Below are positions 7,637 to 58,398 of a stretch of 64,000 bases of DNA, in pieces (within the stretch, counting starts at the first letter, position 1; every line of letters starts with the position of its first letter). Source of the stretch: an uncultured Chlorobiaceae bacterium (lineage in GTDB: Bacteria; Bacteroidota; Chlorobiia; Chlorobiales; Chlorobiaceae); the NCBI GenBank assembly GCA_903882665.1, contig CAIRXW010000024.1:32217-96216 (forward strand), read 5' to 3'. The notes under the pieces were generated by a model. It searched no databases and was not told where the DNA came from. It saw only the letters and a list, made by a program, of their open reading frames with translations. Both the position numbers and the translations under genes were made by a program.

Positions 7637-8271
7637 TGATGAACCATACCGAGATTGAAACCGGCCGTTTAAACTCTCCGGCCCAGGAGCTCTCCTCTCT
7701 CGTGATTCCCCTGTTGAAAGGGGTGATCTATCAGGAGCAGAGCCCGGCCTTGTGGGGCTCTTTGCTCAACCTGATGGCCGCCGTGCGCGATTACGTGGCG
7801 GTGCTTGGGCTGGAGTTGATCCTTGATGAGTCGGAAGGATATGCCTTTTTGCGTTCACGCAGTGAGGGCGAAACGGAGGGGACGAACAGCACACTCCGCC
7901 TGATGGCACGCCGCCAGCTCTCCTACCCGGTCAGCCTGCTGCTGGCACTGCTGCGCAAAAAGCTGGCCGAATTTGATGCGGGTGCTGGCGACACACGCCT
8001 GATTCTTTCACGGGATGAGGTGGTGGAGCTGATCCGCATTTTTCTCCCCCCCACCAGCAATGAGGTGAAGCTGATCGACCAGGTTGATGCCACGCTGAAT
8101 AAAATCGCCGATCTTGGTTTTATCCGCCGGTTGCGGGGAGAGCGGCAGATGATTGAAGTGCGCCGGATTATCAAAGCCTTTATCGACGCCCAGTGGCTGT
8201 CCGATTTTGATCAACGAATGGCCGAATACCGGCAGCAACTTTCGCAACCGTTGGAGAAAAGTGATGAGTGA
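7636..8271 (+). CDS. jetB: Wadjet JetB (DUF4194, MksE-like)
   Basis: ORF 7570..8271. The start ATG 7636 overlaps the jetA TGA (TGATG). Motifs: LLKGVIY, VLGLELILDESEGYAFLR, RRQLSYPVSLLLALLRKKL, EVRRIIKAFIDAQWL. Confidence 0.9.
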   Translation: MMNHTEIETGRLNSPAQELSSLVIPLLKGVIYQEQSPALWGSLLNLMAAVRDYVAVLGLELILDESEGYAFLRSRSEGETEGTNSTLRLMARRQLSYPVSLLLALLRKKLAEFDAGAGDTRLILSRDEVVELIRIFLPPTSNEVKLIDQVDATLNKIADLGFIRRLRGERQMIEVRRIIKAFIDAQWLSDFDQRMAEYRQQLSQPLEKSDE

Positions 8272-10469: not shown

Positions 10470-10655
10470 GACGCCCAGTGGCTGGCCGATTTTGATAAAC
10501 GACTTGACGAATACCTGCAGCGACCGGTAAAAGGAATGGAGAAAGATGATGAGTGAGTCGCTTGAAATGGGATTTGTTGCCGATGACCGTCTGGCCGGTT
10601 TTCGCCTGCAACGGCTTGAGATATTCAACTGGGGCACCTTCGACGGACGGGTCTG
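10470..10655. repeat. Right copy of the 186-bp jetB-3'/jetC-5' junction. It includes a 28-codon jetB-tail relic (10470..10556).
   Basis: It encodes ...[28 protein letters not shown], versus the resident JetB tail DAQWLSDFDQRMAEYRQQLSQPLEKSDE*. Confidence 0.85.
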
Positions 10656-13600: not shown

Positions 13601-13913
13601 ACACGGTGCTTGCCGCCAGCCTTGCCTACCAGTTCGGCCTTGAATGGGGGTCGTGCGCTCCCGCTCCTTCCGCTTCGTGGTCATCGACGAAGCCTTCGGA
13701 CGCGGCTCCGATGAATCGGCCCAGTACGGCCTGCAACTCTTTGCCCAGCTCAACCTGCAACTGCTCATCGTCACCCCCTTGCAGAAAATCCACATCATCG
13801 AGCCCTTCGTCTCCAGTGTCGGCTTTGTCCACAACAAGGAGGGACGCTGCTCGGAGCTGCGCAACCTCACCATCGAAGAGTATCGCACCGAAAAAGAGAG
13901 GTCGGTGGAATGA
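10546..13913 (+). pseudogene. jetC: Wadjet JetC (SMC/MksB-like ATPase) interrupted by a 1-nt frameshift in a G5 run (13646-13650)
   Basis: N-terminal [16 protein letters not shown] and Walker [21 protein letters not shown], followed by long coiled coils. After ...[10 protein letters not shown] the frame degenerates into S/P/A-rich nonsense (to 14037). The frame starting at 13644 encodes the expected tail [23 protein letters not shown]...[12 protein letters not shown] (Walker B / D-loop) and ends at 13913 with an ATGA overlap onto jetD. A sixth G would restore a single ~1120-aa ORF. Confidence 0.85.
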
Positions 13914-15085
13914 GCTGGACAACCCCCGCCGAACTCAAGGCCCAGGTGCAGAAGCTCTGGGATCGGGGCCTCATCCTCTCCTCCCTGATTGGCGGCGAAT
14001 CGGTTTTTCCCCGTCGCCTGACTCTGAAAGGGCCTGACTCCCGGCAATTGAGCGACTCTTTTGGGGAAGTGCGTGACTGGATAAAGCGACTCGACGACGC
14101 AGCAAAGCAGTATCGCATTGTGTGGCGCAGTGTCAACCACCGCATTGTGGGGAACAATGAGATTCCGGATGAAATCTGGATTGATTCACTCAACGACGCT
14201 CTCGGGTTGATTGGCAAGCGGCGTGATGCTGAGCGGTTTGCCGCCCTGGTTGCTCTGACCCGCAGCCGTCAGCCTGAACTGCTGCCGTGGCTGGCCAAAC
14301 GCCCCCTGCACGCCCTCGAACTGGCCGAAGAGTGGTCCCGCATCCTCGACATCGTCGCCTGGCTGCAAAACCATCCCCGGCCCGGTATCTACCTGCGCCA
14401 GATTGACCTGCCTGGAGTGCACAGCAAGTTCATAGAAGGGCATCGTGGAGTGCTTGGCGAACTCTTTGATATCGTCCTTCCACCGGAAAAGATTGACGCA
14501 ACGGCGGTTGGCGTTGGAGGATTCTGCCGCCGTTACGGCTTTCAGGACAAACCCCTGCGAGTACGCTTCCGCATCCTTGACCCGACACTGGCGCTGTTCA
14601 TGACGGAGAGTGATCACGATATCACGGTGACGCAGGCAATCTTTGCCCAACTGGAGCTGCCTGTTACCAGAGTCTTCATCACCGAAAACGAAATCAACTT
14701 TCTCGCCTTCCCCGATGTTCCCGAGGCAATGGTGATTTTTGGAGCCGGGTATGGGTTTGAGAATCTGGCGTCAGTCGAGTGGATGCGTAACCGCGTTATT
14801 CATTACTGGGGCGACATCGACACCCACGGCTTCGCCATTCTCAACCAGTTGCGCGGATTCTTTCCCCATGCGGCTTCCCTTTTGATGGATAGTGAGACAC
14901 TGATGGAGCATCAAGCGCTTTGGGGCGTTGAACCATCTCCCGAAACCGGTACACTCACTCGACTGACCGCTGAAGAGAACCCGCTTTACGATCAGTTGCG
15001 CCGGAATGAGCTGGGACATCAGATACGGCTGGAGCAGGAGAAGATCGGGTTTGAGTGGCTGGTTGAGGCGCTGGGGAGAGTTTGA
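13910..15085 (+). CDS. jetD: Wadjet JetD (DUF3322 + DUF2220/Toprim-like nuclease subunit)
   Basis: 391 aa. Motifs: [51 protein letters not shown]. Confidence 0.9.
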
Positions 15086-15659: not shown

Positions 15660-16355
15660 TTAATGTTTTTGTGGAAGTAGTTGAACTACACAACATACAA
15701 GCCCGAGCGGCTTTGCGATTTCTTTTGCAAATCTCAACTGCGATTCATGAAGACGATCGGTTGTCTTGACTTCAATAAATGACACCCCATTTTTATCTAT
15801 AACGGTTAAATCAGGCCAACCGGATCGATAATCATAGGGATTTGTCATAAATAATGCAGCAATTTTAGCAATCAAATTGGAATCAACTAAATAGGCAAGG
15901 GAGCTTAAAAAATTTTGAAGAATTCCTTGGTGAGAATATTCTTTTTGGTAAAAATATTGAGTTAAGGGATCAGTACAGATCTCAATGATGTGTTCTTGTA
16001 ATTGCTCGGGGCTAATGTTTTGGATACAAGTCAGTATTTCTGGTTGGTAAGCCTTGAGTATCGTACACTGGGCTTCAAAAAAACGACGGATTGCATCTTC
16101 TCTGTCGTTAAAAATATTTCGTTTTGTCAAAACATCCAAAGCCGCTGCCTTCATTAGAATACTTATTCCCATACCCTCACACCAACATGATTCTCTGTTT
16201 TCGGCAGCTAATCGAGTAACAACGACTTGTTCAGGTTTTAGGTCTGAAACCTGCCCTTCCTTCCATTTCCCTGCGCCTATTTTCAATGCATGCATGGTGT
16301 GAAGTGGCCAATTAATTTGCTCGCATTGAGCTTTTAATGTCAGGGTGGTCATCAT
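15660..16355 (-). CDS. FAN1-like VRR-NUC (PD-(D/E)xK) nuclease
   Basis: ORF 15660..16442, with the probable start at MMTTLTL (16355). C-terminal YRSGWPDLTVIDKNGVSFIEVKTTDRLHESQLRFAKEI fits the VRR-NUC pattern GxPDL...xEVK..D.L...Q. The upstream CWCEGMGISILMK resembles the H/W-x-EG helix that precedes VRR-NUC in FAN1. Confidence 0.75.
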   Translation of the reverse strand: MMTTLTLKAQCEQINWPLHTMHALKIGAGKWKEGQVSDLKPEQVVVTRLAAENRESCWCEGMGISILMKAAALDVLTKRNIFNDREDAIRRFFEAQCTILKAYQPEILTCIQNISPEQLQEHIIEICTDPLTQYFYQKEYSHQGILQNFLSSLAYLVDSNLIAKIAALFMTNPYDYRSGWPDLTVIDKNGVSFIEVKTTDRLHESQLRFAKEIAKPLGLVCCVVQLLPQKH

Positions 16356-16623
16356 AATGGAGTTGTGCTTGTAATGCAATAAAAACCGAAACACAAGAAA
16401 TATTGAAAAAGATTCTGGTCCGCTTGAAAAGAGCAAATACATCGAAATATGAACACAAATTACTTCAAATGAAATTAATTCAGAATAATGATCGGTACAT
16501 CATAGATGTTTGTTAAGAACAACAAATCAATACTATGTATTATATCTTGAAGTGAACAAACCAAACCGATTTTTTGCTGCTGATAAACATCGACCCGTGA
16601 TATTCATTCAGATAAATCATCAA

Positions 16624-17634
16624 TTAGTCTTCTGGTATGTCGTAATTATCATGAGGAAAAGAAACCCAGGAGAATTCGATAAAATTATTATCTCCTCTCC
16701 AATAATGCAGGTGATATTCTCCAATGACATCCCTTCTCATACCTATTGCCCCATCAAGTTTTCTCTTTAGGGCCGGGTTTCCTCCGCCAATTCCTGTTCT
16801 AAATCGGTGTTCTGCAGCTTTGTTTAGATTGAGTAACGAGTCAAGCATTGTCATTATTGTCTGTCGCAGAATAGATTGCTGTAATTTGAGTTCTTTGAGC
16901 CTGCTGATGAATTTGCTACCAATCTTATAAAGGGGGATCTCATCAGAAGGAGTCGTGGATTTATTATGAAGATCAAAAACGAATTGGATGGCAATTTTTA
17001 GGGTTTCTTCACTAAGCAAGGAATGAAAGAGTTGTCCGATATCCAGATGTTTGAGGATATCTTGGTAATCCATTGCCAAAAGAAAACGATTGTGAGATAT
17101 CTGAGGATTCAAGTCACGGGAGTTGAGGCTGGCTGTTGTGTCAATTACTGTACTATTGATAATGTGTTGTGCAAGAATAGATTGACGTTCGTTTGGCTGG
17201 TCAGCCTCTAAAATTAAGCACTGCAATGTCTTAATAAAAAGCGACTGTAAATTAGTACCTATGGCGTTTTCTGGGATAGCGGGAGTAACTGAATCTATTT
17301 TGACTTCCTTGTCGGTAATCTGCAAATTCTCATCTTCAAGATAAGAATGGAGGGACGTAAGTTTATAGAAATACGGAATTAGATCGTTGGCGCTATGTTC
17401 ATAAACATTGCATTGTTTAAGTTTTAGTGAAAGTTTTTTTGGATCAAGATATTCGCTGTCTATAAATAGTGCATTCAGGGAACCGCGACTCATTATCAGA
17501 CTCAAAAGGGGCTCTGACCTGAAGAAATCCAATGAAATCAATGCATCTATATATTGTAAAGCCTTTTCTTTCTTGTCCCCGATACTCGAAATAGCCAATA
17601 CACTGGGGTCAAGAATGACGCGTAAAGGGAGCAT
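16624..17634 (-). CDS. Hypothetical protein with a RelE/ParE-like C-terminal segment
   Basis: 336 aa. I see no N-terminal motif. The C-terminal GAIGMRRDVIGEYHLHYWRGDNNFIEFSWVSFPHDNYDI follows the RelE/ParE core pattern (G..W.R.VG.YRl.Y...d..i.i..v..H..Y). It starts 25 nt after the upstream ATPase stop. Confidence 0.6.
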   Translation of the reverse strand: MLPLRVILDPSVLAISSIGDKKEKALQYIDALISLDFFRSEPLLSLIMSRGSLNALFIDSEYLDPKKLSLKLKQCNVYEHSANDLIPYFYKLTSLHSYLEDENLQITDKEVKIDSVTPAIPENAIGTNLQSLFIKTLQCLILEADQPNERQSILAQHIINSTVIDTTASLNSRDLNPQISHNRFLLAMDYQDILKHLDIGQLFHSLLSEETLKIAIQFVFDLHNKSTTPSDEIPLYKIGSKFISRLKELKLQQSILRQTIMTMLDSLLNLNKAAEHRFRTGIGGGNPALKRKLDGAIGMRRDVIGEYHLHYWRGDNNFIEFSWVSFPHDNYDIPED

Positions 17635-17659: not shown

Positions 17660-19204
17660 TTAATTATTTTTCGGATTGCTTTTCCGCTTCTTGATGGCGG
17701 CTTTAGTGATTTTTTCGACGGCGGATTCATTTTCATCAAAAAAGCCTTCAGGCCAATCCAGAATGCTGCCACATTCGTCAATCTTGATTTCGCGAAATGT
17801 AGAGCTATCATTTTTGTTTTCGACGAAATACACTTTTGCAGCATCATGCCAGGGAGAACCCTCGAAGCCCTCAGCAATCCGAAGACGAATGCGGTTAATA
17901 ATGTGTTCACTATGCGTTTCAACAAGGCACTGCTTGCCGAGCTGCGTCAGAGAAAGGAAAAAGTCAGCCAATCGAGACTGAACTTTCGGATGAAGATGCA
18001 ATTCCGGCTGCTCAAATATCAATGTTGTGTCCGGCTCCGCAAGTAAGCCAGAAACAAGAATAGGTAAAACCTGACTAACACCTACGCCTACTTGAGTTAT
18101 ATCATTAATTTGATTGCCATTACCTATCTTAACCCCAAGTTCAAGGCCGTACTTGCCCTTGTCAGTCACTTCAATTTTTTCAGCTATACCAAGATACCCA
18201 AGCCAGTCATCAATAGCATTTTCGAGTAAACATTCAATAGGCTCTGGAATATTTCCTGATTTATCGAAAGATAAAGAAGGAATGTATCGAATGATTTTGC
18301 GCTTATGCGTTTCAAAAACCTCCGGAGTGTTTTCGCCTTTCAGACCGATAGTGTTTTCATTTAAGTTAGAAAATCGGGCATATAAAGACTTGGAGGAGGC
18401 TCGCAAAGGTCCGAGATAGTGTAATGACTTTGAAAAGTATTCCTTGATATATTGCGTAGCCTCTTTAGCTTGTGGCGGTAGTGACCCCCTCCACATGTTA
18501 AAATAGTTATTTTTGCCCTTATCTGTCCATTCATCACCAATTAACAACTGTGCAGGTAAGAAATTTTGAAATATACAACCGATTGCAGAGCATTTATACT
18601 CTTCCTCAACTGTGTTACAAGGAAGCTTAGAAAAATCGTCTTTGTGAAAAACATGGGATTCACGATCTTCGATATTATAGCTTAAAGCATTACGAATATC
18701 CTTGTCCGAAGTGTTTTGTATCCATTTCTCTTTCCAGCCAATTGTAAGAATGTCAGGGCGCTTTACATTCAAAGAGTATTGGTTCCCCAGACCAAAATGA
18801 GAACGACATAAATCTATGTCACTGTTATCCCCTGTTGGCAAATACAATTCTGAATCACTTGGTGCAACGGCTATCTCGCAATATATTTTCTTCTTTAAAA
18901 TCTCATCGAACGGAAGCAAGGTGTCGCTTAAAGTTAAACACTCCCAGCCGATTACCAAGGTCTTTGATGTACTGTTATCACTTATGTTGTCATTGAAATT
19001 TCCCAGCTTAATGAGATCACCGTTCAATACTAATGGACGAGAAGGATCCTTATGTGAAAGTGTCTGAACAATAAGCAGTATAGACTTTAGAATGGTACTC
19101 TTCCCGCTACTATTTGCTCCTGCGAAAAGAGTCAAAGGGAAAAAATCAAGCTCTGTGTAATCACGTATAGACCTAAAATTAGCTAACTTCCATTTTGTAA
19201 TCAT
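17660..19204 (-). CDS. ABC/OLD-type ATPase (AAA_15/AAA_21-like) with DUF3696-type C-terminus, short paralogue
   Basis: ORF 17660..19246, with the start taken at MITKWKLANF (19204). Walker A GANSSGKST, Walker B-like LIFEQPELHLHP, H-loop ETHSEHIINR, C-terminal DWPEGFFDE. Confidence 0.85.
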   Translation of the reverse strand: MITKWKLANFRSIRDYTELDFFPLTLFAGANSSGKSTILKSILLIVQTLSHKDPSRPLVLNGDLIKLGNFNDNISDNSTSKTLVIGWECLTLSDTLLPFDEILKKKIYCEIAVAPSDSELYLPTGDNSDIDLCRSHFGLGNQYSLNVKRPDILTIGWKEKWIQNTSDKDIRNALSYNIEDRESHVFHKDDFSKLPCNTVEEEYKCSAIGCIFQNFLPAQLLIGDEWTDKGKNNYFNMWRGSLPPQAKEATQYIKEYFSKSLHYLGPLRASSKSLYARFSNLNENTIGLKGENTPEVFETHKRKIIRYIPSLSFDKSGNIPEPIECLLENAIDDWLGYLGIAEKIEVTDKGKYGLELGVKIGNGNQINDITQVGVGVSQVLPILVSGLLAEPDTTLIFEQPELHLHPKVQSRLADFFLSLTQLGKQCLVETHSEHIINRIRLRIAEGFEGSPWHDAAKVYFVENKNDSSTFREIKIDECGSILDWPEGFFDENESAVEKITKAAIKKRKSNPKNN

Positions 19205-19298
19205 ATCTATTCTGGTTTTACAACACCCGAGATGCTGATTGATCAATGAGTAAAGATATCACGTTTGAGAAACGCCGTTACTGTAGCAGCTTACGGTG

Positions 19299-21383
19299 TC
19301 AATTAAATCGCCCCTTAACATGTTGTTTTAGAGCCATCGCCCGTATTCTTTTTTCAGTTTCCAAAAGACCTTCTTCAAAAAATCCCTCAGGCCAATCCGG
19401 AATAGCTCCATATTCATTTATGCTCACTTCCCTGAATGATGAACAACTCTCTTTTTTTTCTACGAAATATACTTTTGTGGCCTCTGGCCAAGGTGAGCTT
19501 TTAGAACCTTCAGCAATTCGAAGACGTATACGATTAATAATGTGCTCACTGTGCGTCTCAATCAGGCACTGCTTGCCGAGCTGCGTCAGAGAAAGGAAAA
19601 AATCAGCCAAACGAGACTGAACTTTTGGATGAAGATGCAATTCCGGTTGCTCAATAATTAACGTTGTATCAGATTTTGCAAGCAAACCAGCCACAATAAT
19701 AGGAAGAACCTGACTGACACCCACACCCACTTGAGTCAGGTCATGATTTTTATTCCTGTTGCTCATGCAAACCTGAAGCTCATGGCCAAACTGAGCAGAA
19801 TCTTTGCTCTCAATATTTTGAGCCACGCCAAGGTAGTTCAACCAGTCAACAACAGCATCCTGGAGTGAACACGTAACCGGAACGGGAATATTTGCCGAGT
19901 TGTTAAACTCAGAGGTCGGTAAATATTGAATGTCATGTATTTTTTGACTTTCAAAAACAGCGGCTGTGTTTTCCCCCTCCAATCCAACATCTTCAAGATA
20001 AGATGTTGAGGAAATCGGATATGACGGTTCAGGATCAATCCTTAATGGACCTATATAGCGAACAGAATTGGTAAAGAAAGACTTAAAGTAGCCTGCATCT
20101 TCGCTGATATGACGTCTCACGAGTTCTCGTTTTACTTCTCCATTCCGTCTTATCTCCTGTATCATCTCATCAAGAAGTGCCTGAAATTTCTGACTTTTAT
20201 TAAGCTTTATCACAACCACATCCCTAAAACAAAATGAGGATGTAAAATCTCCTTCCGTTAAAAAATCAAATAAATCATTAAAGTCCTCACTTTCATCATC
20301 AAGTAATTTCATGAGTTCATCAACAAGATCGTCCAATGAGGCAAGAATTAATGTTTTTCCCTTTTCATCCGAACTTTCACGATCTTTTTTTACAAGTTTT
20401 TCATAAGTATCATAATCATCTTGATCCATATTACTTACAATCTCTTTGATACATAACCTTATCTTTGATTGAAGAAAAATGGGGGCATCAGAAAGGAAAT
20501 CAAAGGGGCATACTCCCTTATATAAACAGAAAACGTTTCTAATTGCTTCAATTTTTTCAACTTCAGTCTCAACTAAAGATGTTATTAAATCGGGCAAAAA
20601 GTGCCAGAAAGAACACCCGATCGTCTTTGATCTATACAACACATCTTTTTCATGTATTTGACCATAAGAGAATTCATAATCATCTCCATGATTCGATTTG
20701 TGATTATAAGAATAATTTGTTATCCAATTGCCGACAAGTTCTGAGCTATATAATGTTTCCCTATCATTTATATTCCCAGAATCACCACTACCCAGATAAC
20801 TAGCCCGTTCAAGTTTCACATCATAATCCAATGTACTCAGAACCGCTTCACTATATGGATTATCTATTACCTTTTGTTTAGAACACTTAGCCTCCTCTGT
20901 TGCTCGAACTGCCACCAACGAACATTCATACGCATTATTATCAGTAATATTTTTTTGCACTGTAAGCGCTATCGAAGATAAAGTTGGGCTTGAAGAAAAA
21001 GTCGATAGATTAGCGCTTGTTTTTGAATCATCCATCCCAAATACTATTTCGCAGGATATTAACGATATCTGCTCAACATCAGCTCGTTCATCAAGTATTT
21101 TTTCTTTTGGTGGTTTCAGCTCCCAACCAATGACGATTTGATCTGAAACACCATCGGTACTTTTTATATCGCTGAATTCACCCAATTGTATAAACTGACC
21201 ATTCAATACGACCTGGCGGGAAGGATCCTTATCGGAAAGAGTCTGTGAAATAAGCAGGATAGACTGCAGAAGCGTACTTTTACCGCTACTGTTTGTACCA
21301 GCAAAAATAGTCAGGGGAGCAAAGTCCAGTGTAGTTTCATCCTTGACAGACTTGAAATTAGCCAATTTCCATTTTGTAATCAT
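19299..21383 (-). CDS. ABC/OLD-type ATPase (AAA_15/AAA_21-like) with DUF3696-type C-terminus, long paralogue
   Basis: 694 aa. MITKWKLANFKSVKD..., Walker A GTNSSGKST, LIIEQPELHLHP, ETHSEHIINR, DWPEGFFEE. The central insertion between the ATPase lobes is about 170 aa longer than in the 17660..19204 paralogue. Confidence 0.85.
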   Translation of the reverse strand: MITKWKLANFKSVKDETTLDFAPLTIFAGTNSSGKSTLLQSILLISQTLSDKDPSRQVVLNGQFIQLGEFSDIKSTDGVSDQIVIGWELKPPKEKILDERADVEQISLISCEIVFGMDDSKTSANLSTFSSSPTLSSIALTVQKNITDNNAYECSLVAVRATEEAKCSKQKVIDNPYSEAVLSTLDYDVKLERASYLGSGDSGNINDRETLYSSELVGNWITNYSYNHKSNHGDDYEFSYGQIHEKDVLYRSKTIGCSFWHFLPDLITSLVETEVEKIEAIRNVFCLYKGVCPFDFLSDAPIFLQSKIRLCIKEIVSNMDQDDYDTYEKLVKKDRESSDEKGKTLILASLDDLVDELMKLLDDESEDFNDLFDFLTEGDFTSSFCFRDVVVIKLNKSQKFQALLDEMIQEIRRNGEVKRELVRRHISEDAGYFKSFFTNSVRYIGPLRIDPEPSYPISSTSYLEDVGLEGENTAAVFESQKIHDIQYLPTSEFNNSANIPVPVTCSLQDAVVDWLNYLGVAQNIESKDSAQFGHELQVCMSNRNKNHDLTQVGVGVSQVLPIIVAGLLAKSDTTLIIEQPELHLHPKVQSRLADFFLSLTQLGKQCLIETHSEHIINRIRLRIAEGSKSSPWPEATKVYFVEKKESCSSFREVSINEYGAIPDWPEGFFEEGLLETEKRIRAMALKQHVKGRFN

Positions 21384-21454
21384 AAGCTATGGTAAATTTA
21401 AAACCGATACATTGTGACTATATGCTATGTTCTCACGAGTCCCACTACTAATGT

Positions 21455-22306
21455 TTACCTGCAAATTCCTAAATGCTCGTGAATGATTTTAATTGAGGGA
21501 ACAACCGTATTTTGCAAATATTCTGTTGGTTCATTTCCACCCCAATTGTAAGGGAAATGAGCACTTGGGTGTGAAAAAGCAGCTATAAATGACTCATGGG
21601 AACCAAGTTTTGCCTTATACACGAAATCTGACACTTGACTTACCGAGTCAAACGATTTTCTGATTGATTTCTTCCAAAAACCTTTTCCCTGAACAATTAT
21701 CACCGACGGTTCAAGAATATTCATAACCTTACGAAAATGCCCACCACAGTTACTCATCATCGTCGGTGTAGCCTTTCCGTTACATGTCCCGTCAGGAACG
21801 GCTGAACAGAGCAAATAGTTGACAAGAGCAAATGCATCGAAAATATGAACGCGCTTGCCTTCAATCGACAGAAATTCAGAATGGTGATCGGTACCGAGTG
21901 GAATGCCGAAAATCAACCGAAGAACGCTTGTTGTGCCTTTCATGTGAGGATTCCGGCCCTTATAACCTTGTCCAGCAGCAAACCGGCAGTCAAGAGCAGA
22001 AAACTTGAACATTTGAGATCGCGCCTGACAATCAACACGGGCTGGAGGATGCCCATATTCTTGCCCAACGACAACGACACGTAATGGCCTCCCATCGAAT
22101 GAAACGCCGTAATATTTCCCTACGTGGTGAAGTTGCCCCTCGTAAAATGTATCAGCGTGCGATGATTTGCACGAATTATAGTGTGAACAGATAAAATCAT
22201 CACCCAAGACATTATCGGTCAAATACTGTTCAACCGCCTGTATTCGGGCCTCAGACTTTTGCTTCTCGTATGTTGCAACAATAGAATCCGCTAACGGAAG
22301 GCTCAT
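21455..22306 (-). CDS. Uracil-DNA-glycosylase-superfamily-like protein (divergent)
   Basis: 283 aa. Three collinear motifs match family-1 UDG: RVVVVGQEYGHP (res. 76-87, cf. GQDPYH), FALVNYLL (res. 159-166, cf. LLLN) and AAFSHPSAHF (res. 242-251, cf. HPSPLS). Assigned by motif reading only. Confidence 0.6.
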   Translation of the reverse strand: MSLPLADSIVATYEKQKSEARIQAVEQYLTDNVLGDDFICSHYNSCKSSHADTFYEGQLHHVGKYYGVSFDGRPLRVVVVGQEYGHPPARVDCQARSQMFKFSALDCRFAAGQGYKGRNPHMKGTTSVLRLIFGIPLGTDHHSEFLSIEGKRVHIFDAFALVNYLLCSAVPDGTCNGKATPTMMSNCGGHFRKVMNILEPSVIIVQGKGFWKKSIRKSFDSVSQVSDFVYKAKLGSHESFIAAFSHPSAHFPYNWGGNEPTEYLQNTVVPSIKIIHEHLGICR

Positions 22307-22726
22307 AACAACTTTGTAAAAAATTCACAACTGTCTGCCGAATTTAGTGAAATAAACGAATAAAACACCTCATCTTGTGCGGCAAAAGATCTTTTTACGG
22401 AGCAGGAGCATTTCATATCATATCATCAAAACACACATCAATAACCTCACTCACTCCGCTTCAGGCAAGTCTCTTTGCTTTGAGTTTTACCCCCTTCAAA
22501 AATCGCATCGACAACCTGTACAGGAAATCCCGCAATTGGCTGCTGCGGTCCATAAACACGCTGAAGTTTTTTACATGCCACTCTATGGATCAAAAGAGTA
22601 AAAAAGCTACCTGCAATCGAAAGAATGGTTTACCAACAAGTAAAGCAGGATCCATGGCACCCGGATGGGCAATTTTCGGACGATTATCGAACATTTATCG
22701 GACGATTAACGGACGATTATCAAACA

Positions 22727-23197: not shown

Positions 23198-23605
23198 TCA
23201 GATCGGCATGATTTCTTTCTCAAATTGACTGGCCGAAATGATTCTGGTCGTAACCAACGATTGCGCTTCAGAAAAATCACTGTCGCCAGTGATAAAGTAA
23301 TCAGCGCCGACTGACTCAGCACATTCGAGAAATGGAGCATCCTTCCTGTCACGAGGAAACTCAATATGAATATCAGTGTGGACCATTTGTGTGTCTGCTA
23401 TAAGAAGCTCTGTCCAGCATGTAATTGTTGCAGCGGATAACGCAAATTTTGGACGACGGATAACTTCAAGATATTCATCAAGTACAGACCGGGTAACATA
23501 CCAATCTACATCCACCGCCCCTATACACCACAGCAATACACGCTCGGGTAACCGATCACGGATAACAGCAGACACAACAATATTGGTATCAATAACCACC
23601 TTCAT
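23198..23605 (-). CDS. vapC: PIN-domain toxin (VapC-like)
   Basis: 135 aa. MKVVIDTNIVVSA..., ...DRKDAPFLECA..., YFITGDSDF. There is a 4-nt overlap with the upstream antitoxin ORF. Confidence 0.85.
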   Translation of the reverse strand: MKVVIDTNIVVSAVIRDRLPERVLLWCIGAVDVDWYVTRSVLDEYLEVIRRPKFALSAATITCWTELLIADTQMVHTDIHIEFPRDRKDAPFLECAESVGADYFITGDSDFSEAQSLVTTRIISASQFEKEIMPI

Positions 23606-23841
23606 CGGGTATTCCTGACATCATTAATTTCAGCAGCAATATCTTCGTCAGTAATAGTCGCTGATTGAGGCAAGTTTTGAACATGACGCATGAGTGCCTG
23701 CCAGGATGATACTTTCTCATCACTCAGCATGCTTTGATCAACAATCAAAACTTCAAGGAGTACACCTTTCTGAAAAGGTAACCGGTCAAGCACCAATCGG
23801 CCTGACGAATCAACTTCAGCGTATGTCTTGTAAGCTTTCAT
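23602..23841 (-). CDS. Putative antitoxin of the PIN toxin
   Basis: ORF 23602..23895, with the likely start at MKAYKTYAEVDSSGRLVLDRLPF (23841). It is small and acidic at the C-terminus, and translationally coupled to vapC. Confidence 0.6.
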   Translation of the reverse strand: MKAYKTYAEVDSSGRLVLDRLPFQKGVLLEVLIVDQSMLSDEKVSSWQALMRHVQNLPQSATITDEDIAAEINDVRNTR

Positions 23842-23980
23842 AGCACAGCACCTCCTGTAACGTAAAATTCGGCCAATATAGTAAGGCAAGAACATCGCGT
23901 CTACTATCCAAAACCTTTATCAAGTTAACATATCCCACAAAACAAAGCGAGGTTTTATTCCCGGAGATCATGAGTGAATG

Positions 23981-24193
23981 TCAAGCGGATTTCGCCAACT
24001 TTTCAGCCCTCTGATCCAGAGTGAACAAGACTTCTTGAATGGCTTCAACTTCGGGTTCATCAAAATAGACTTCGCCACACTGGGCGCATACCCAGGCAGG
24101 AATTCTGTCTAACGTAATGTGATAGCCTTTCCTGTCGGTATGAAAAGGCGCAATCCCCCGTTCCATATTCCCGCTACAATACATGCAGTTCAT
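23981..24193 (-). CDS. YgiT-type zinc-finger antitoxin-like protein
   Basis: MNCMYCSGNMERG...IPAWVCAQCGEVYFD, a double CxxC that fits the YgiT/MqsA N-terminal zinc-finger pattern. Confidence 0.75.
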   Translation of the reverse strand: MNCMYCSGNMERGIAPFHTDRKGYHITLDRIPAWVCAQCGEVYFDEPEVEAIQEVLFTLDQRAEKLAKSA

Positions 24194-24324
24194 CGTCTCC
24201 TCCTTCGTTTGTAATCGTACTCCCACTCGTCAAGGTTAGGAATATACGCAGTGATGACTGCCTGATAATCCCCCTTCGGTGAGCAAACTACATGAATTGG
24301 TGTATCATCAAGCCCTGCAACTTC
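24190..24324 (-). pseudogene. Truncated DUF4258-like toxin (C-terminal 44 codons only)
   Basis: *EVAGLDDTPIHVVCSPKGDYQAVITAYIPNLDEWEYDYKRRRRR* with an ATGA overlap onto the YgiT gene. An in-frame TAG sits directly upstream, and no N-terminal half is found in any frame. Confidence 0.5.
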
Positions 24325-24583
24325 CTATCGTAGAACCGAGGTGGAAATCTGATACGGACATTATCCGGCCATATTCCTGCGCCGATTAATTGCTGGGTAC
24401 AACTTGCATAAATACAGCTAATAGTATGCAAATATGATAGTTACAAAGCAGCAAGAATACTATGGGTGGTTGCGGAATTTACCTATCCGGACATTATCCG
24501 GACATAAATCAAGAGCGAATTCTTCCCACGAGCGCGAAGAGAGCATAACTTAAATTTCACCAAATTCACACCATCAACTTTTA

Positions 24584-24859
24584 CTATCGGTACACATCCT
24601 TCCGGTGAGCGATACGAACCACAAGAACGGAAACCTTCTCATCGTACAGTTCACAAATCACGCGGTAATCTCCGACCCGGTACCTCCAGAGTCCGGAGAG
24701 TTCTCCACGCAACGACTTACCCGAACTGCGAGGATCAACGGAGACTCGTTCCCACAAATACCTGATAATCCTCTTTGCGGCAGGCTTGTCGATCCGGGCC
24801 AACTCTTTTTCAGCCTCACCCGTTATTTCAATTTTCCAGACCAAGGCGCTGCTCCACAT
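24584..24859 (-). CDS. relE: RelE/ParE-family toxin
   Basis: 91 aa. ...[13 protein letters not shown]..., [37 protein letters not shown]. Confidence 0.85.
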
Positions 24860-25079
24860 CTTCTAAACTGGAAACAGACTCCTCGCCTCGTCTTACGCGT
24901 TCCAACACCTGCTCAGCCAGATAAACATCTTCAAGATCATCAAGATGCTCAACTATGGCTTCGCGAATATAATACGTCTTGCTGCGTCCGGTTCTAAAAG
25001 CAAGGCTTTCAAGCCGTTGCCCAATGCTCCTCGGAATACGGATACCGATCATCTGATCTGCTTTCTCTTTTTCCATCAT
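24828..25079 (-). CDS. Ribbon-helix-helix antitoxin (RelB/CopG-like)
   Basis: 83 aa. [36 protein letters not shown] (RHH). It overlaps the relE start. Confidence 0.75.
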
Positions 25080-25287
25080 AGTCTTCAGTACATGTTATAC
25101 AATGCAATACATGTTACACAATAACAACAGGATTCACAAATTCAAGTCATGAAAGAAGTCCCCATGTACACAAAATGAATTGAAATGCCACTCCTATGCT
25201 CGTGCAGTAAAGACCGATCACAACATGACCATAGGAGTGGCACAAAGGAGTAAAAAGGCTACCTGCTATCGAAAGAATGGGTTACCG

Positions 25288-25623
25288 TCAATTTATGCAG
25301 ATCCATAGCACAAGCTCCTTGATATCCCTAGCAGCGGTATCTTTCACAATACCAAGGGTTTTCGTGATCCATCCGGTGGAAACAGTGCCGTTTTTAACAA
25401 TTTCGGCAAGTACCGCCTTTTGTCGTTCATTCAACTTTGCAGCAACCGAAAGACTGAGACCAGCAGTTATGTTTTCCGGAATCCTTATTCGATTCATATC
25501 TTCCCCCGGACCTCTCAATACCACCACAACCTCGTTATCGGCTATCGTGATCAGCGGTTCATCAAGTCCGTGGTTCAGCATGGCACCCGCGCATACGCAT
25601 AATCCCTGTACCGCGTTCCTCCA
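25288..25623 (-). pseudogene. Copy 2 of the regulator C-terminal remnant (see 22727..23155), further deleted at its 3' end
   Basis: Near-identical nucleotides to 22800..23110. It carries the same internal frameshift and lacks ~140 bp that are present in copy 1 (about 22660-22800). Confidence 0.6.
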
Positions 25624-25800
25624 TTCAACTACTCAATTTGCTCAGCAAGCTGCTGACTAAATTGCCCGGTTGGACAATAGTTTTCCAGTGAATCCTGAAA
25701 AGCATATTATACAATTTTCTAAAAAAGCTATACATTTCAGGCAACATCACCTCAGTTTGGGCGGGGTTGCATTACGTGCATTAACAATGAAGAAACCATT

Positions 25801-26019
25801 ATGACAACACTCCTTGAACAAGCAGTCAATCGAGTCAAGACATTGTCCGATAATGAGCAAAATGCCATTGCGGCATTGATTCTTGAAGAAATTAATGATG
25901 ATTTCCGTTGGGATAAAAGTTTTGCATCCAGCCAGGACACCTTGGCAATGCTTTCCAAAGAGGCTGATGAAGAGATTTGTGCAGGCAAGTGTGAAGTACT
26001 TGATCCCGATAAACTTTGA
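25801..26019 (+). CDS. Antitoxin-like small protein (same family as 28078..28278)
   Basis: 72 aa. It shares ...RWDK.F..S...L..L..EA..E...G... with the antitoxin at 28078..28278. Confidence 0.6.
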   Translation: MTTLLEQAVNRVKTLSDNEQNAIAALILEEINDDFRWDKSFASSQDTLAMLSKEADEEICAGKCEVLDPDKL

Positions 26020-26285
26020 AATCACGTATTACTTCAAAATTCCGCAAGTAATTTGACGAGTTGCTGCAAAGTGTCCAACAACAAGCGAAGGAGGTATACC
26101 GACAATTTATGCTGTATCCATGGCATCCAGGTTTGCGCTTCAAGCGAATTCACAACAGCCTTCCGATTTACTCTGTTCGAATTGGCAAAGGCTGTCGTGC
26201 AGTTGGTAAACTTGATGAAAATGGAGTCGTCTGGTTTTGGATTGGCTAACATGCCAATTACGACAAATTTTTATCTCAACGGTAA
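26016..26285 (+). pseudogene. ParE/RelE-like toxin with two in-frame stop codons
   Basis: The reading frame gives LKSRITSKFRK*FDELLQSVQQQAKEVYRQFMLYPWHPGLRFKRIH...SVRIGKGCRAVGKLDENGVVWFWIG*HANYDKFLSQR*. It is collinear with the intact paralogue at 27827..28081 (HPSLQFKKV...SARVGSHYRAV...WVWIGTHADYDRLL). The stops are at 26049-26051 and 26247-26249. Confidence 0.65.
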
Positions 26286-26424
26286 CAAGCGGGAACCTCC
26301 TATCGCACAGCAATAGTGTGCGGACAAATCAGCGCCACACTCCCATTCGATAAAGTATCCGCCATTGCGAACCTTCGTAAATTCTTCAAGGTTCCGAAGC
26401 TTTTCAAACGCTTCATAGTCCAGT
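26271..26424 (-). pseudogene. DUF2442 C-terminal fragment
   Basis: ...YEAFEKLRNLEEFTKVRNGGYFIEWECGADLSAHY... The fragment stops being DUF2442-like exactly where the jetC-derived sequence begins (26425). Confidence 0.45.
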
Positions 26425-26594
26425 CCGACGACCTGCCGCGCTTTGAGGATCGGTTCAAGGAGCTGCTCAACGAAAACACCATCCGGGAGGTGGCCAATAT
26501 TCAGTCGCAACTGGCCCGCGAACGGGAGACTATCAGAGAGCGCATCACGCGGCTCAACGAATCGCTCACGCAAATCGACTGCAATCCGGGCCGA
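26425..26594 (+). pseudogene. 170-bp internal jetC fragment (homologous to 13103..13272)
   Basis: Hand alignment shows 8 mismatches in 170 nt. It encodes [56 protein letters not shown]. Confidence 0.85.
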
Positions 26595-26603
26595 ATCAAG
26601 CGA

Positions 26604-26799
26604 TTATGTCTTGAATACAGGTGGAACTCCAAGATCTTTACAAATTTTCTTGATCAATAAATCGTTTATCTCATTATGTCTCGGAATAGATGAGCGTTTT
26701 ATTTAATGCAGGATTTATCCACCACGAATGACATCCGCCTTCTCTGGAAAATTCACACCCTTGTGACCGCAGGTATTTGAGAAATTCTTGTCGCTTCAT
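26604..26799 (-). pseudogene. hicA: HicA toxin with a +1 frameshift in an A-run
   Basis: MKRQEFLKYLRSQGCEFSREGGCHSWWINPALNK then a stop after 9 further codons. The shifted frame gives RSSIPRHNEINDLLIKKICKDLGVPP, the conserved HicA tail. The extra base lies in the T4 run at 26697-26700 (plus strand). ATGA overlap with hicB. Confidence 0.7.
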
Positions 26800-27011
26800 A
26801 CACAGACAAGTTCCTCTTGATAATTTTGACCGGCAAAGCCAATAGCATCTTCCCTGTTCAATTCAAGAAGTTCTCCCAATGTAATTTTAAGGCTTATTAA
26901 CAAATCTTCTTTGGTGTACTCCTGACAATTGACTCCAGGCACTTCTTCTATCCAGCCTATCCAGCAGCCATTATCTTGTTTGATTATGGCCGTATAGTTG
27001 TTTTGATACAT
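26796..27011 (-). CDS. hicB: HicB-family antitoxin (UPF0150)
   Basis: 71 aa. YTAIIKQDNGCWIGWIEEVPGVNCQEYTKEDLL. Confidence 0.75.
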   Translation of the reverse strand: MYQNNYTAIIKQDNGCWIGWIEEVPGVNCQEYTKEDLLISLKITLGELLELNREDAIGFAGQNYQEELVCV

Positions 27012-27037
27012 AGCTTTCTCCAGAGGAAATAGGACGT

Positions 27038-27250
27038 TTAATTTAACATTCCGGGCTCTTTGCGGAGTATGGGAATCGGGCGACTTTCGCTATGCTCAAG
27101 CCGTTCAACAATAACGCGAAGGGCGAGAACCTCCGCCTTGGACATTGCTTCCAGCGATGACGCACCGTAAGCGAGAACTCCCGGTAACTCGGGGACTTCC
27201 GCCAACCAACACCCATCAGATTCTTGTTCCTGCTCTATAGTGAAATTCAT
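27038..27250 (-). CDS. HicB-like (UPF0150) protein with no adjacent HicA
   Basis: ORF 27038..27307, start taken at MNFTIEQEQESDGCWLAEVPELPGVLAYGASSLEAM. Confidence 0.65.
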   Translation of the reverse strand: MNFTIEQEQESDGCWLAEVPELPGVLAYGASSLEAMSKAEVLALRVIVERLEHSESRPIPILRKEPGMLN

Positions 27251-27273
27251 TTTGCTATCCAGTTCAAGTGAAT

Positions 27274-27486
27274 TTAATAATTTTGTTTGACCGATTTTTT
27301 TATGCATTTATCGTAAACAAACTCAGGATCAAGATCGACTCCAGACTCCCATTCTATGGTGTCAAAAGCAACGGCAACTTTTTTAAAAGAGTTGCAATCT
27401 TTAAGCAGATTAAAAACTCCGAAACAAAGATATGGCTTCATATCCAACACTCCACTCTCGCCATTACTAAAGATGATATCAAGCAT
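27274..27486 (-). CDS. DUF2442 family small protein
   Basis: ...LDIIFSNGESGVLDM...IEWESGVDLDPEFVY. The in-frame upstream residues (YPSVIDVVPRDNF) also look DUF2442-like but lack a canonical start codon. Confidence 0.7.
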   Translation of the reverse strand: MLDIIFSNGESGVLDMKPYLCFGVFNLLKDCNSFKKVAVAFDTIEWESGVDLDPEFVYDKCIKKSVKQNY

Positions 27487-27539
27487 AAAATTATCTCGTG
27501 GAACAACATCTATTACTGATGGATAAATGGTATTTTCTC

Positions 27540-27807
27540 CTATTGTAATGGTTGGATTTTAAATGGCTCCTCACCATTCATAACCAGATTCCAGTCACTC
27601 AAAAGTTCTTCCTGATGTAATTCAGCCCACGCCAAAACAAGTTTTATTTGCTTCCTCGGCAAATTCCCTTCGATCATCTCACAAGTGCCGATATCTACCT
27701 TACCTGAATATTCTGCATGATAGACATGAAAATGCGGCGGAGGATGTTCACCTGGAGCAAAGTTACATCCGAATGATAATTCCGTAAAACGTCGATATTG
27801 TCGGCAA
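27540..27807 (-). pseudogene. DUF4160 gene with a frameshift/premature stop
   Basis: An AGGAGG box followed by a TTG start. LPTISTFYGIIIRM* (stop at 27763-27765), then the next frame reads NFAPGEHPPPHFHVYHAEYSGKVDI...LSDWNLVMNGEEPFKIQPLQ*. Confidence 0.65.
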
Positions 27808-27826
27808 AGCTACCTCCTGTAGTCTT

Positions 27827-28081
27827 TTAAGCAAGCAACCTGTCATAGTCAGCATGAGTGCCAATCCAGACCCAAAGAAAACCCCCATCAATCGACGTGG
27901 CGACTGCGCGATAATGAGAGCCGACACGAGCAGACCAGACTTTGCCCACTTTCTTGAATTGCAAAGAAGGGTGGGAGTGATCTTCTTTTATCATTTGAAA
28001 GTTCTTCTTGGCGAGACTACGAATCTCCACAGGAAGGCGTTCATAGCATGTCCAGAAGCTGGAAGCCGTTTTGTGTTTCAA
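27827..28081 (-). CDS. ParE/RelE-like toxin (intact paralogue of 26016..26285)
   Basis: 84 aa. HPSLQFKKVGKVWSARVGSHYRAVATSIDGGFLWVWIGTHADYD. There is a 4-nt overlap with the upstream antitoxin. Confidence 0.65.
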   Translation of the reverse strand: MKHKTASSFWTCYERLPVEIRSLAKKNFQMIKEDHSHPSLQFKKVGKVWSARVGSHYRAVATSIDGGFLWVWIGTHADYDRLLA

Positions 28082-28278
28082 AGGTCTCTCGTCAGTCCTG
28101 CTTCATGTTCAGCAAGCGCCGCGTTGATAAGGAAATCGAGCTTTCCCGCATTGGAATCAGCTTCCAGTTGTTTATCCCAACGTGCCTGCTCGAATTCGAT
28201 AAACCATTCACGGAGTTTTGAAAAAGAATCGTCATCCAATTCTGCAATATGTTGTTCCAATAGCTCCACTTGAGTCAT
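28078..28278 (-). CDS. Antitoxin-like small protein
   Basis: 66 aa, acidic, translationally coupled to the toxin at 27827..28081. Confidence 0.6.
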   Translation of the reverse strand: MTQVELLEQHIAELDDDSFSKLREWFIEFEQARWDKQLEADSNAGKLDFLINAALAEHEAGLTRDL

Positions 28279-28387
28279 ATTACCCTCAATTTTTTAAAAT
28301 TTTTGGCACCTTTAAAGTGGTTGTCCACATCAGCTTTCTTTAGAATTTTACCAAACTCTTCTAAACAGTACTTGCTGTGTCGAAATA

Positions 28388-28434
28388 ACTGCTTTTAGGA
28401 GTATAACAAACAATTTCAGGCCATCAAAACAGAT
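28388..28434. repeat. 47-bp direct repeat, copy B (partner at 5894..5940)
   Basis: See copy A. Both copies lie 110-116 nt upstream of the start of a minus-strand TA-like operon. Confidence 0.75.
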
Positions 28435-28744
28435 CTGCGCAGAACAAACAACAACGAAATCACTTCCTCCGTTTTAAACAGGCGCCTTTGCATTGAGTCC
28501 TGCTCCTTCAAAACCCGCAGCCCCGATTTGCCCAATAATACCAATCTTCAACCGCTTCCCGGGTCGCTTCATCCGCCTCAACGACGGAGTACCATCCCAT
28601 CGCCAGTTCTTCCGGGCTATAAGCATCAAAAATGATTTCATAATCAATGCGTTGTTCTCGAATTTCATCGTATTCAACTCTGCTCATACAATCTCCGTTG
28701 GCTTACGTTGACGCAATACATGTACGTCTGAAGCTCATGTTCTT

Positions 28745-29256
28745 TCAACGGTCTGCGGGGATATAGGGAATCAATCCTTTTTCATAGGCAATAACCTGAA
28801 ATTCACGCGACATCTGGCGAATATCGACAATCATACCATCGACTTGCAACATCCAGATCATTGGATTGTTATCGACATGGCATGGCAAGCACCAGTTCGG
28901 GTCAAGTGGATACATTTTCAGCAGGTCACGAATAAGTTTGGCCTTGTTTTCCCCCGTACTTTTACTGACGCCACATGCTGCGCACAGCTCATCCACCCGC
29001 AGGTGTGGAGATTGTGTTTTGTCGAACAGGAAATTGACGGTACCAAGCGCATAGAGAATACCACATGCCCAGATTTCCGGTTTTCCCCGCATGAGGGGGA
29101 TGGACGCTTGCGCGCAAGCGTTGCCGCCAACTGACGGGCAAGCGCGGCATATTCGTCGTTCAGGTGCTGTTGGCAAATACTCTCTGTCAGATTGACAATT
29201 GCCGCGTATGCAGGTTCTAAAGCGACTGGAACGGATTCAGATTTTTTCCTGGTCAT
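28745..29256 (-). pseudogene. DUF6398-like protein, frameshifted in a homopolymer
   Basis: The N-terminal frame (ORF 28918..29256) reads ...LNDEYAALARQLAATLARKRPSP. The next frame (ORF 28745..29176) continues LMRGKPEIWACGILYALGTVNFLFDKTQSPHLRVDELCAACGVSKSTG. The switch occurs at the G5 run 29095-29099, and one extra G/C would fuse the two frames. Confidence 0.55.
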
Positions 29257-29386
29257 TTAATAATATCTTCAAGATCATAAAGATGGTCAACAATAGCCAA
29301 GCTCGTATCAATATAGTCTACGAAATCGAGAAATTGCTTGAGCAGATGTATGCACTGCTTCACAGGTTTGGATTTTATCGGGAAAA

Positions 29387-58133: not shown

Positions 58134-58207
58134 GGGCCCTTAGCTCAGTTGGTCAGAGCAAGCGACTCATAATCGCTGGGTCGTAGGTTCAAGTCCTACA
58201 GGGCCCA
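58134..58207 (+). tRNA. tRNA with anticodon CAT, most like tRNA-Ile2 (lysidine-modified); formally tRNA-Met(CAT)
   Basis: Cloverleaf by hand: acceptor GGGCCCT/AGGGCCC, D-arm GCTCAGTTGGTCAGAGC, anticodon arm GCGAC-TCATAAT-CGC.., T-arm GTAGGTTCAAGTCCTAC. The anticodon stem and T-arm resemble E. coli ileX more than elongator tRNA-Met, judged from memory. Confidence 0.85.
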
Positions 58208-58240
58208 CCGAATTGTGAATGACTGAAAAAGATATTACCT

Positions 58241-58317
58241 GGCGTGTTCGTCTAGTGGCCCAGGACATCGCCCTCTCAAGGCGAAGATCACGGGTTCGAA
58301 TCCCGTACACGCTACCA
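58241..58317 (+). tRNA. tRNA-Glu (anticodon CTC), CCA encoded
   Basis: GGCGTGT-TC-GTCTAGTGGCCCAGGAC-A-TCGCC-CTCTCAA-GGCGA-AGATC-ACGGGTTCGAATCCCGT-ACACGCT-A-CCA. The D-arm is typical of tRNA-Glu. Confidence 0.9.
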
Positions 58318-58324
58318 TTACCAT

Positions 58325-58398
58325 GCACCCGTAGCTCAATTGGATAGAGCATCTGACTACGAATCAGAAGGTTAGAGGTTCGACTCCTCTCGGGTGCA
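58325..58398 (+). tRNA. tRNA-Arg (anticodon ACG)
   Basis: GCACCCG-TA-GCTCAATTGGATAGAGC-A-TCTGA-CTACGAA-TCAGA-AGGTT-AGAGGTTCGACTCCTCT-CGGGTGC-A. Confidence 0.9.

Follow-up and report, generated by a model that had tools for sequence, protein, structure and literature searches.

We analysed a 64,000-nucleotide (nt) stretch of DNA from an uncultured Chlorobiaceae bacterium (hereafter the window; contig CAIRXW010000024.1, positions 32,217 to 96,216), in which a minus-strand gene cluster begins with a gene for a protein of the uracil-DNA glycosylase (UDG) superfamily that we call UDGL, for UDG-like. UDGL represents a previously uncharacterised and sparsely distributed branch of this superfamily that resembles family 4 and UdgX, and the genes after it code for two ATPases of the NsnB type known from Menshen defence systems, a polymorphic protein and an accessory protein with a weak nuclease match. 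The cluster is laid out as follows (aa, amino acids):

21455..22306, minus strand: UDGL, an open reading frame (ORF) of 283 aa with an ATG start; divergent member of the UDG superfamily, nearest to family 4 and UdgX
21384..21454, minus strand: spacer of 71 bp between UDGL and ATPase 1 (72-75 bp in the related loci L002-L004)
19299..21383, minus strand: ATPase 1, NsnB-type ABC ATPase of 694 aa (Pfam AAA_15 1e-26, DUF3696 tail 1e-7; PADLOC NsnB 9e-80)
17660..19246, minus strand: ATPase 2, NsnB-type, 528 aa (Pfam AAA_15 and DUF3696 tail; PADLOC NsnB 6e-74)
16624..17634, minus strand: polymorphic protein of 336 aa, candidate NsnC-type effector, with a PIN-like N-terminal signature recognised by eye and a RelE/ParE/YoeB-like C-terminal domain
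15660..16442, minus strand: accessory protein of 260 aa, weakly similar to VRR-NUC proteins (Pfam VRR_NUC E 1.7e-4, not reaching the gathering score; PHROG endonuclease 4e-6)

The placement of UDGL in the superfamily comes from its predicted structure and from profile comparisons. The AlphaFold2 model, built on a 50-sequence alignment, had a mean predicted local distance difference test score (pLDDT) of 93.8 and a predicted template modelling score (pTM) of 0.92. When it was searched with Foldseek against the Protein Data Bank (PDB), the top 50 matches were all UDG-fold enzymes (probability 0.95-1.00; template modelling (TM) scores normalised to the target 0.45-0.61), the best being the family-4 enzyme 4zby (E 4e-5) and the others including UdgX, 1ui0 and 1l9g of family 4, MUG/TDG and SMUG1, with no family-1 structure among the 50. 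The corresponding search of the viral library BFVD returned COG1573 UDGs of phages and the N-terminal, UDG-like domains of phage PolA proteins. At the profile level, NCBIfam UDG_fam4 (TIGR00758) matched residues 176-250 with E 2e-4 and 21 bits, below its cut-off of 125.3, and Pfam UDG (PF03167) gave E 0.1 and 13.1 bits, below its gathering score of 24.3; the homology is remote. Additionally, the UDGL family profile had as its sole match among all PDB sequences the S. tokodaii family-4 UDG 4zbx (E 0.36), and hhalign aligned residues 178-279 of the family with an alignment of four family-4 and UdgX sequences (E 1.4e-4, probability 52%), while phmmer of UDGL against PDB sequences yielded noise only (FEN1, E 0.02). 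Family 4 and UdgX (TM0511 1L9G, T. thermophilus UDGA 1UI0, S. tokodaii 4ZBY, M. smegmatis UdgX 6AIL) are thus the best structural and the only sequence or profile matches of UDGL. An initial annotation, made from the sequence without database searches, had assigned the protein to the UDG superfamily, and the uniform Foldseek result for the model together with the TIGR00758 match bears this out: on the modelled structure, a UDG-superfamily fold is almost certain.

The same annotation had read the protein as a variant of family 1, and this part was not supported. UDGL does resemble E. coli Ung (1LQG) in one strand and loop (VVVVGQEYGH compared with VVILGQDPYH), in an HPS motif B and in the order of the three motif elements, and hhalign pairs E83 with Ung D64, in line with the reported Glu at the position of the catalytic Asp. 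However, hhalign to E. coli Ung reached a probability of 0.9%, with only 17 residues around motif A aligned. What remains for the family-1 reading is that single, short resemblance, and the Fe-S families, family 4 and UdgX, stand closer to UDGL. Membership in family 1 (UNG) was rejected on the hhalign value, on the Foldseek top 50 and on the motifs, which read GQEYGH and HPSAH, not GQDPYH and HPSPLS. Family-1 UDGs have no Fe-S cluster.

The three motif elements were found in the order and at the residue positions exactly as first described, with VVVVGQEYGHP at 77-87, FALVNYLL at 159-166 and SHPSAHF at 245-251; the first list of motifs did not include four near-invariant cysteines and an invariant histidine, His121, at the stacking position. 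The elements of the predicted active site and of the proposed cluster site are:

22169..22189, minus strand: C40-x5-C46, proposed first two [4Fe-4S] ligands (topology compared by hand with 1l9g, 1ui0 and 4zbx)
22052..22066, minus strand: motif A, G81-Q-E83-Y-G85, with an acidic residue at the Ung D64 position (conservation and hhalign)
21929..21955, minus strand: R118-N-P-H121-M-(K/R)-G-T-T126, putative counterpart of the family-4 'RPFVGxAG' element (manual comparison)
21806..21820, minus strand: N163-Y-L-L-C167, the base-recognition Asn followed by the proposed third Cys ligand (conservation and comparison with the family-4 pattern)
21746..21748, minus strand: C187, proposed fourth Fe-S ligand (hmmsearch and hhalign align the family-4 Cys here)
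21563..21571, minus strand: motif B, H246-P-S248 (conservation; aligned to family-4 HPS/HPA)

Residue conservation was counted in an alignment of 225 near-full-length UDGL homologues. In motif A, G81 was kept in 203 sequences, E83 in 188 (with Asp in 11 more) and G85 in 215, with Q82 (167/225) and H86 (100/225) being less conserved. N163 was present in 213 and replaced by Asp in a further 12, and motif B was conserved at H246 and P247 (222 each) and at S248 (175). The block from R118 to T126 was nearly invariant, including H121 (220/225), M122 (216/225) and G124 (224/225). The motif residues proposed at the outset (G81/E83/G85, N163 and H246-P247) are therefore conserved in 84-99% of the homologues, and this conservation means that the motifs are not a chance resemblance. 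The remark that the spacings are about 20 residues longer than in E. coli Ung was also accurate: E83 and N163 lie 80 residues apart and N163 and H246 83, compared with 59 (D64-N123) and 64 (N123-H187) in Ung, whose sequence was checked against PDB 1lqg. The longer spacings are due to two insertions, one of ~30 aa after motif A (residues ~87-117) and one of ~15-20 aa before the Asn strand (~133-158).

The four cysteines are among the most conserved positions of the family (C40 in 224, C46 in 221, C167 in 225 and C187 in 224 of the homologues), and their order mirrors that of the family-4 [4Fe-4S] ligands, with two before motif A, one after the Asn and one at the start of the next helix. The third lies four residues past the recognition Asn both in UDGL (N163-Y-L-L-C167) and in the T. 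maritima enzyme (N85-V-V-K-C89), and the fourth, in C187-G-G-H-F, corresponds to family-4 C105-G-H-F-L. Two N-terminal cysteines before motif A, N-x3-C, C-x2-(F/H)-(L/F) and an HPS motif B are thus shared with family 4, and the UDGL strand 'ILEP-x-V-x-V-V-Q-G' corresponds to family-4 'IINPDVIVALG'. In contrast, motif A reads G-Q-E-Y-G and not G-E-(G/A/Q)-P-G, the first two cysteines are spaced C-x5-C and not C-x2-C, 'PHMxG' with its invariant His stands against 'PFVG' with its stacking Phe, and UDGL has the two insertions and an extra N-terminal helix. Motif A is unlike that of any characterised UDG family, its acidic residue being at the family-1 Asp position and not at the family-4 Glu position. 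His121 would occupy the place of the family-4 base-stacking Phe, an equivalence drawn manually, by position, from the family-4 'RPFVGxAG' block. The strong constraint on E83/D83 (88%), H246 (99%), N163 (95%) and H121 (98%) is typical of an active pocket, and UDGL is probably a folded and catalytically competent DNA glycosylase; we consider it likely that it is an active glycosylase that binds an Fe-S cluster. The change from a stacking Phe to an invariant His suggests a substrate other than uracil, and together with the Asn and His pocket residues it points to a substituted pyrimidine; the substrate may be a hypermodified pyrimidine.

The linkage of UDGL to the ATPases is seen in a set of related loci. 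No terminator-like hairpin was found in the 71-bp spacer, and the order UDGL, ATPase 1, ATPase 2, 336-aa-like gene recurs in the Chlorobiaceae metagenome-assembled genome loci L002-L004, in the metagenome loci L064 and L067-L070 and also in L096; it is kept in L060/L072, with UDGL 64% and the ATPases 51% identical and a spacer of 32 bp. In a neighbour-joining tree of 109 family members, the ATPase-linked copies all fell in one contiguous clade. Furthermore, a metatranscriptome contig of 1,685 nt (depth 20) runs unbroken over 20809-22446; it takes in 140 nt upstream and the complete UDGL gene and reaches across the spacer 575 nt into ATPase 1. The initial annotation had made UDGL the first gene of an operon with ATPases in a defence island; gene order, spacer and contig agree with this, but the link to the ATPases is limited to one clade. 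That UDGL is a functional part of the ATPase system is, in our judgement, slightly favoured. A weak ATPase match in another locus, L030, was not counted as linkage, as it lies on the opposite strand. A sigma-70 promoter scan gave fewer sites than shuffled sequences and was uninformative for this organism, and megablast of the operon against E. coli genomes gave no match. Other arrangements of the cluster were as follows:

L001, 5428-9918: ISL3-family transposase and group II intron reverse transcriptase/maturase between UDGL and the first ATPase
L065, 1652-2737, and L066, 9555-10640: UDGL genes followed by a 361-aa protein resembling type IV methyl-directed restriction endonucleases and by a gene with no assigned family
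L079 and L080, 10474-12962 (corresponding to window 21834-15085): an opposite-strand cassette of 463-aa and 231-aa genes beside JetD in place of the operon

The transposase and the intron alone part UDGL from the ATPases in L001. Over the 5' part of the UDGL gene, L079 and L080 share 99% identity with the window, and a single replacement took everything from residue 158 of UDGL through the last operon gene; this swap marks a hot spot for the exchange of defence cassettes. The arrangements in L001 and in L079/L080 both count in favour of UDGL belonging to the operon.

Both ATPases share with Menshen NsnB the AAA_15 domain, the DUF3696 tail, the GxG signature and a Walker B motif whose catalytic Glu is replaced by an amide. 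They are paralogues whose C-terminal halves are 59% identical (BLASTP), and both carry the Walker A G-x-N-S-S-G-K-S-T, the Walker B I-E-Q-P-E and the GxG signature. The Walker B of NsnB itself reads EN, with the amide replacing the catalytic Glu, and NsnC effectors combine an inPIN-like N-terminal domain with a nuclease or toxin domain at the C-terminus, which in many of them is RelE/BECR-like (PMC12065111). The 336-aa protein resembles NsnC in following the ATPases directly, in being hyper-polymorphic and in its RelE-like C-terminus in a low-confidence model. It has only 15 database homologues, the proteins at the same position in the operons of relatives are 24-30% identical to it, and it shows an N-terminal V-x-L-D-x-S-x-L-A and a conserved C-terminal block RRD...HHLHYW...PHD. 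The best Foldseek matches of the low-confidence model were RelE, YoeB, ParE and HigB (probability up to 1.0, TM-scores normalised to the target 0.58-0.72). In the DNA run X1, which matches the window, a minority contig (depth 24 compared with 164) departs from the window at 16653 and rejoins it at 17731, which indicates that the population also carries another allele of the gene for the 336-aa effector.

The arrangement differs from Menshen in having two ATPase paralogues where Menshen has one NsnB, and in the additional VRR-NUC gene of the window. The first gene differs as well: no DUF262 and no PADLOC NsnA match was detected in it, and a UDG fold is found at the position of NsnA (ParB-DUF262 and ParBDB). 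The Menshen survey mentions neither a UDG nor a VRR-NUC protein (PMC12065111). The VRR-NUC gene had been regarded as a linked member of the cluster, and it is so in the window and in L002; in L001, L003, L064 and L060 it does not follow the fourth gene, and it is therefore an optional addition.

The UDGL family as a whole is very rare and patchily distributed. A homologue search with UDGL returned 368 proteins, none with a precomputed Pfam domain, and an exhaustive profile search gave 817 clusters (50% identity, E <= 1e-3) among 1.84 billion, 504 of them with E <= 1e-10. At least 55 loci of the family were found among 185,579 species genomes, a lower bound limited by the search pattern. PADLOC and PHROG models gave no match to the family, and a pattern-limited scan of the viral contigs of IMG/VR found no relatives. 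No neighbour common to all members emerged from all-versus-all BLAST of 540 flanking ORFs and from Pfam and PADLOC searches of 144 immediate neighbours; the partners found were clade-specific only. Members of the family are also found fused to a UvrD-type helicase, to Ank repeats and DUF4357, and to DUF4268, and a form of ~445 aa is extended at its C-terminus by a conserved stretch that matches no Pfam family (all among P0249, P0227, P0213 and P0096/P0101/P0119). The family is therefore mobile and self-sufficient, and in one clade it has become coupled to a module of the NsnB/NsnC kind. Separately, a subclade with ~40% identity to the query (L130, L138, L139, L140 and L142) sits right next to a gene for the large subunit of a phage terminase and to an ORF of ~135 aa common to these loci, which suggests carriage by a prophage or satellite.

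The best reading of the locus is that UDGL stands in the sensor position held by NsnA (ParB-DUF262) in Menshen, followed by the pair of NsnB-type ATPases and the polymorphic effector resembling NsnC. Taken as a whole, we propose that a divergent, family-4-like UDG-fold protein with a putative Fe-S cluster leads a Menshen-like operon and recognises or excises an unusual phage base, to which we assign a probability of about 0.5; an anti-phage role of UDGL in itself seems somewhat more probable. In the clade of the window, the UDGL gene would have been taken up into a Menshen-like cassette as its first gene. UDGL could then scan invading DNA, flip out a non-canonical base (probably a 5-substituted pyrimidine), and either excise it or stay bound to the product, and the NsnB-like hetero-ATPase pair might detect the engaged glycosylase or the apurinic/apyrimidinic (AP) product. 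The E-Q Walker B of the ATPases suggests a slow-hydrolysing switch, and the DUF3696 tails could release or activate the RelE-like effector, with the VRR-NUC nuclease also engaged in the window. The fold, the conservation of motifs and cysteines, the family of the ATPases, the clade-specific gene order and the contig across the first junction are shown by the data, whereas Fe-S binding, catalysis, the substrate, contacts between the proteins and the defence phenotype are inferred. In its most detailed form, in which a base-flipping Fe-S UDG-fold sensor, on recognising or excising a modified phage base, signals through a switch of heteromeric NsnB-like ATPases to a RelE-like RNase, and to VRR-NUC in some loci, with an abortive-infection style output, and in which UDGL founds a seventh type of UDG family (G-Q-E-Y-G / P-H-M / HPS), this scheme is tentative and, in our judgement, less likely than not.

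Several observations weigh against this reading. Family members at 62% identity or less have no adjacent ATPases, and distant members lie beside a mixed set of genes, among them housekeeping or repair genes (Mfd, DnaE, GlmU/GlmS and malate synthase), transposases, phage terminases, conjugation-like genes and genes for a histidine kinase, a WYL regulator, an Lhr-like helicase and luciferase-like oxidoreductases. Even among close copies, the UDGL of L065 and L066 is 82-83% identical and is followed, instead of the ATPases, by the 361-aa gene (PADLOC mREase_IV, E 9e-18), which indicates that the UDGL protein can work without the ATPases. About 11% of the 225 homologues have Ser, Ala or Gln in place of the acidic residue at position 83, and the [4Fe-4S] site is proposed from the order of the cysteines in the primary structure. 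As for the putative effector, the model of the 336-aa protein, built with its database homologues, has a pLDDT of only 59.9, for which reason the fold assignment is tentative, and its Foldseek E-values are 0.04-0.3. In addition, PADLOC models match none of the UDGL, 336-aa and VRR-NUC proteins, and the metatranscriptome contig is unstranded and could include DNA carry-over.

UDGL could instead be a stand-alone defence glycosylase of the Brig1/Brig2/Brig3 type that excises a modified phage base by itself. The NsnB/NsnC-like module would then be independent of it and share with it no more than the defence island and possibly a transcript. Most family members are lone genes in variable mobile contexts (transposases, resolvase, terminases) and close copies pair with another downstream gene, as this explanation would have it, and Brig1-3, which like UDGL belong to the UDG superfamily and have their genes in defence islands and mobile regions, are a precedent for defence by a single UDG-fold gene; Brig1 lies near Wadjet and its best structural match is also the S. 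tokodaii UDG (PMC11078745). We nevertheless regard it as rather unlikely, because order and spacing with the ATPase pair are kept down to 64%/51% identity within one clade, the NsnB/NsnC-like module has no other candidate sensor here at the NsnA position, and the metatranscriptome contig spans the junction between UDGL and the first ATPase. The proteins themselves also differ: hhalign between the UDGL family and Brig1 (sequence from the PMC11078745 supplement) gave a probability of 0.25%, on which identity of the two families was rejected, and Brig1 has G-L-N-P-G as motif A and a single Cys, compared with G-Q-E-Y-G and four Cys in UDGL. For none of Brig1-3 has an Fe-S cluster or an association with ABC ATPases been reported. 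Brig3 has the residues N50-P51-S52 (motif A), D127 and N225 and acts with an operon partner, and Brig2 is found in integrons, with >500 homologues in Proteobacteria, Bacteroidetes and Firmicutes (bioRxiv 10.1101/2025.10.29.685425; 10.64898/2026.02.25.707755).

Two further explanations appear less plausible still. UDGL might be an accessory base-excision-repair enzyme, that is, a back-up glycosylase for uracil, hypoxanthine or 5-hydroxymethyluracil from a new Fe-S UDG family, whose position next to the ATPases is incidental. Its closest relatives are indeed the family-4 repair enzymes, catalytic-type residues are conserved, and distant members adjoin Mfd, DnaE, the Lhr-like helicase or the WYL regulator or are fused to the UvrD-type helicase. 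A housekeeping role of this kind is improbable, however, given the rarity and patchiness of the family, its setting in islands of low GC content that adjoin Wadjet genes, a toxin-antitoxin pair and mobile elements (the UDGL-ATPase cluster has a GC content of 39%, compared with 48% for the window), the truncation of the UDGL gene without replacement in close relatives, one locus in which a canonical UDG lies directly beside it, and the Phe-to-His change, which suggests a substrate other than uracil. Alternatively, UDGL could be a catalytically dead, DNA-binding sensor or adaptor with a UDG fold that binds DNA, an AP site or a lesion and excises no base. The unprecedented motif A and the Ser, Ala or Gln at position 83 in some homologues would fit, family 5 UDGs also lack a polar catalytic residue, and UdgX is an example of the fold acting by tight or covalent DNA capture. 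Against this, the constraint on E83/D83, N163, H246 and H121 has the pattern of an active pocket, and we hold a dead enzyme to be very improbable.

Defence glycosylases, Menshen and the UDG fold are known already. In the Menshen survey, the DUF3696 literature and the papers on defence glycosylases we found no description of an Fe-S UDG branch with a G-Q-E-Y-G, P-H-M and HPS site, and no UDGL-type first gene in an NsnB/NsnC cassette with duplicated ATPases. To our knowledge, the proposed Menshen sensor has always been a ParB-DUF262 protein, and defence glycosylases (Brig1-3, Dag) are a recent discovery and have so far been found to act alone or with a base-trimming helper. If UDGL is indeed a UDG-fold enzyme that replaces the sensor, NsnB/NsnC modules would accept interchangeable sensors, base-excision chemistry would be tied to ATPase-gated effectors in a glycosylase-based recognition of non-self, and there would be a tractable handle on what Menshen-type ATPases sense, whether the bound glycosylase, AP sites or both. 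Independently of the operon, UDGL defines an uncharacterised, putative Fe-S branch of the UDGs with an unusual site, in which Glu stands at the family-1 Asp position and His takes the place of Phe.

Lastly, the cluster is flanked by Wadjet JetC/JetD genes on one side and by a gene pair that is likely a toxin-antitoxin on the other:

10546-15085, plus strand: Wadjet JetC-like protein of 1163 aa (AAA_29 and SbcC Walker B), overlapping JetD of 391 aa (DUF3322 and JetD_C); convergent with the ATPase operon
23198-23895, minus strand: PIN-domain toxin of 135 aa (PIN_3 2e-14), preceded by an overlapping 97-aa ORF; just upstream of UDGL

ORFs at 6191-8271 may be JetA/JetB. Far from the island, at 58134-59469 on the plus strand, lie four tRNA genes (Met-CAT, Glu-CTC, Arg-ACG and Gln-CTG), which offer no obvious integration site for it. 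Rfam searches over 15-31 kb of the window gave no match. Beyond the toxin gene, the region 24000-29300 is poor in ORFs and has a persistently negative GC skew, and it is 90-95% conserved in L079/L080. Within it, positions 26419-26594 resemble an internal segment of jetC (13097-13272), which suggests that this part of the region is the debris of decayed defence genes.

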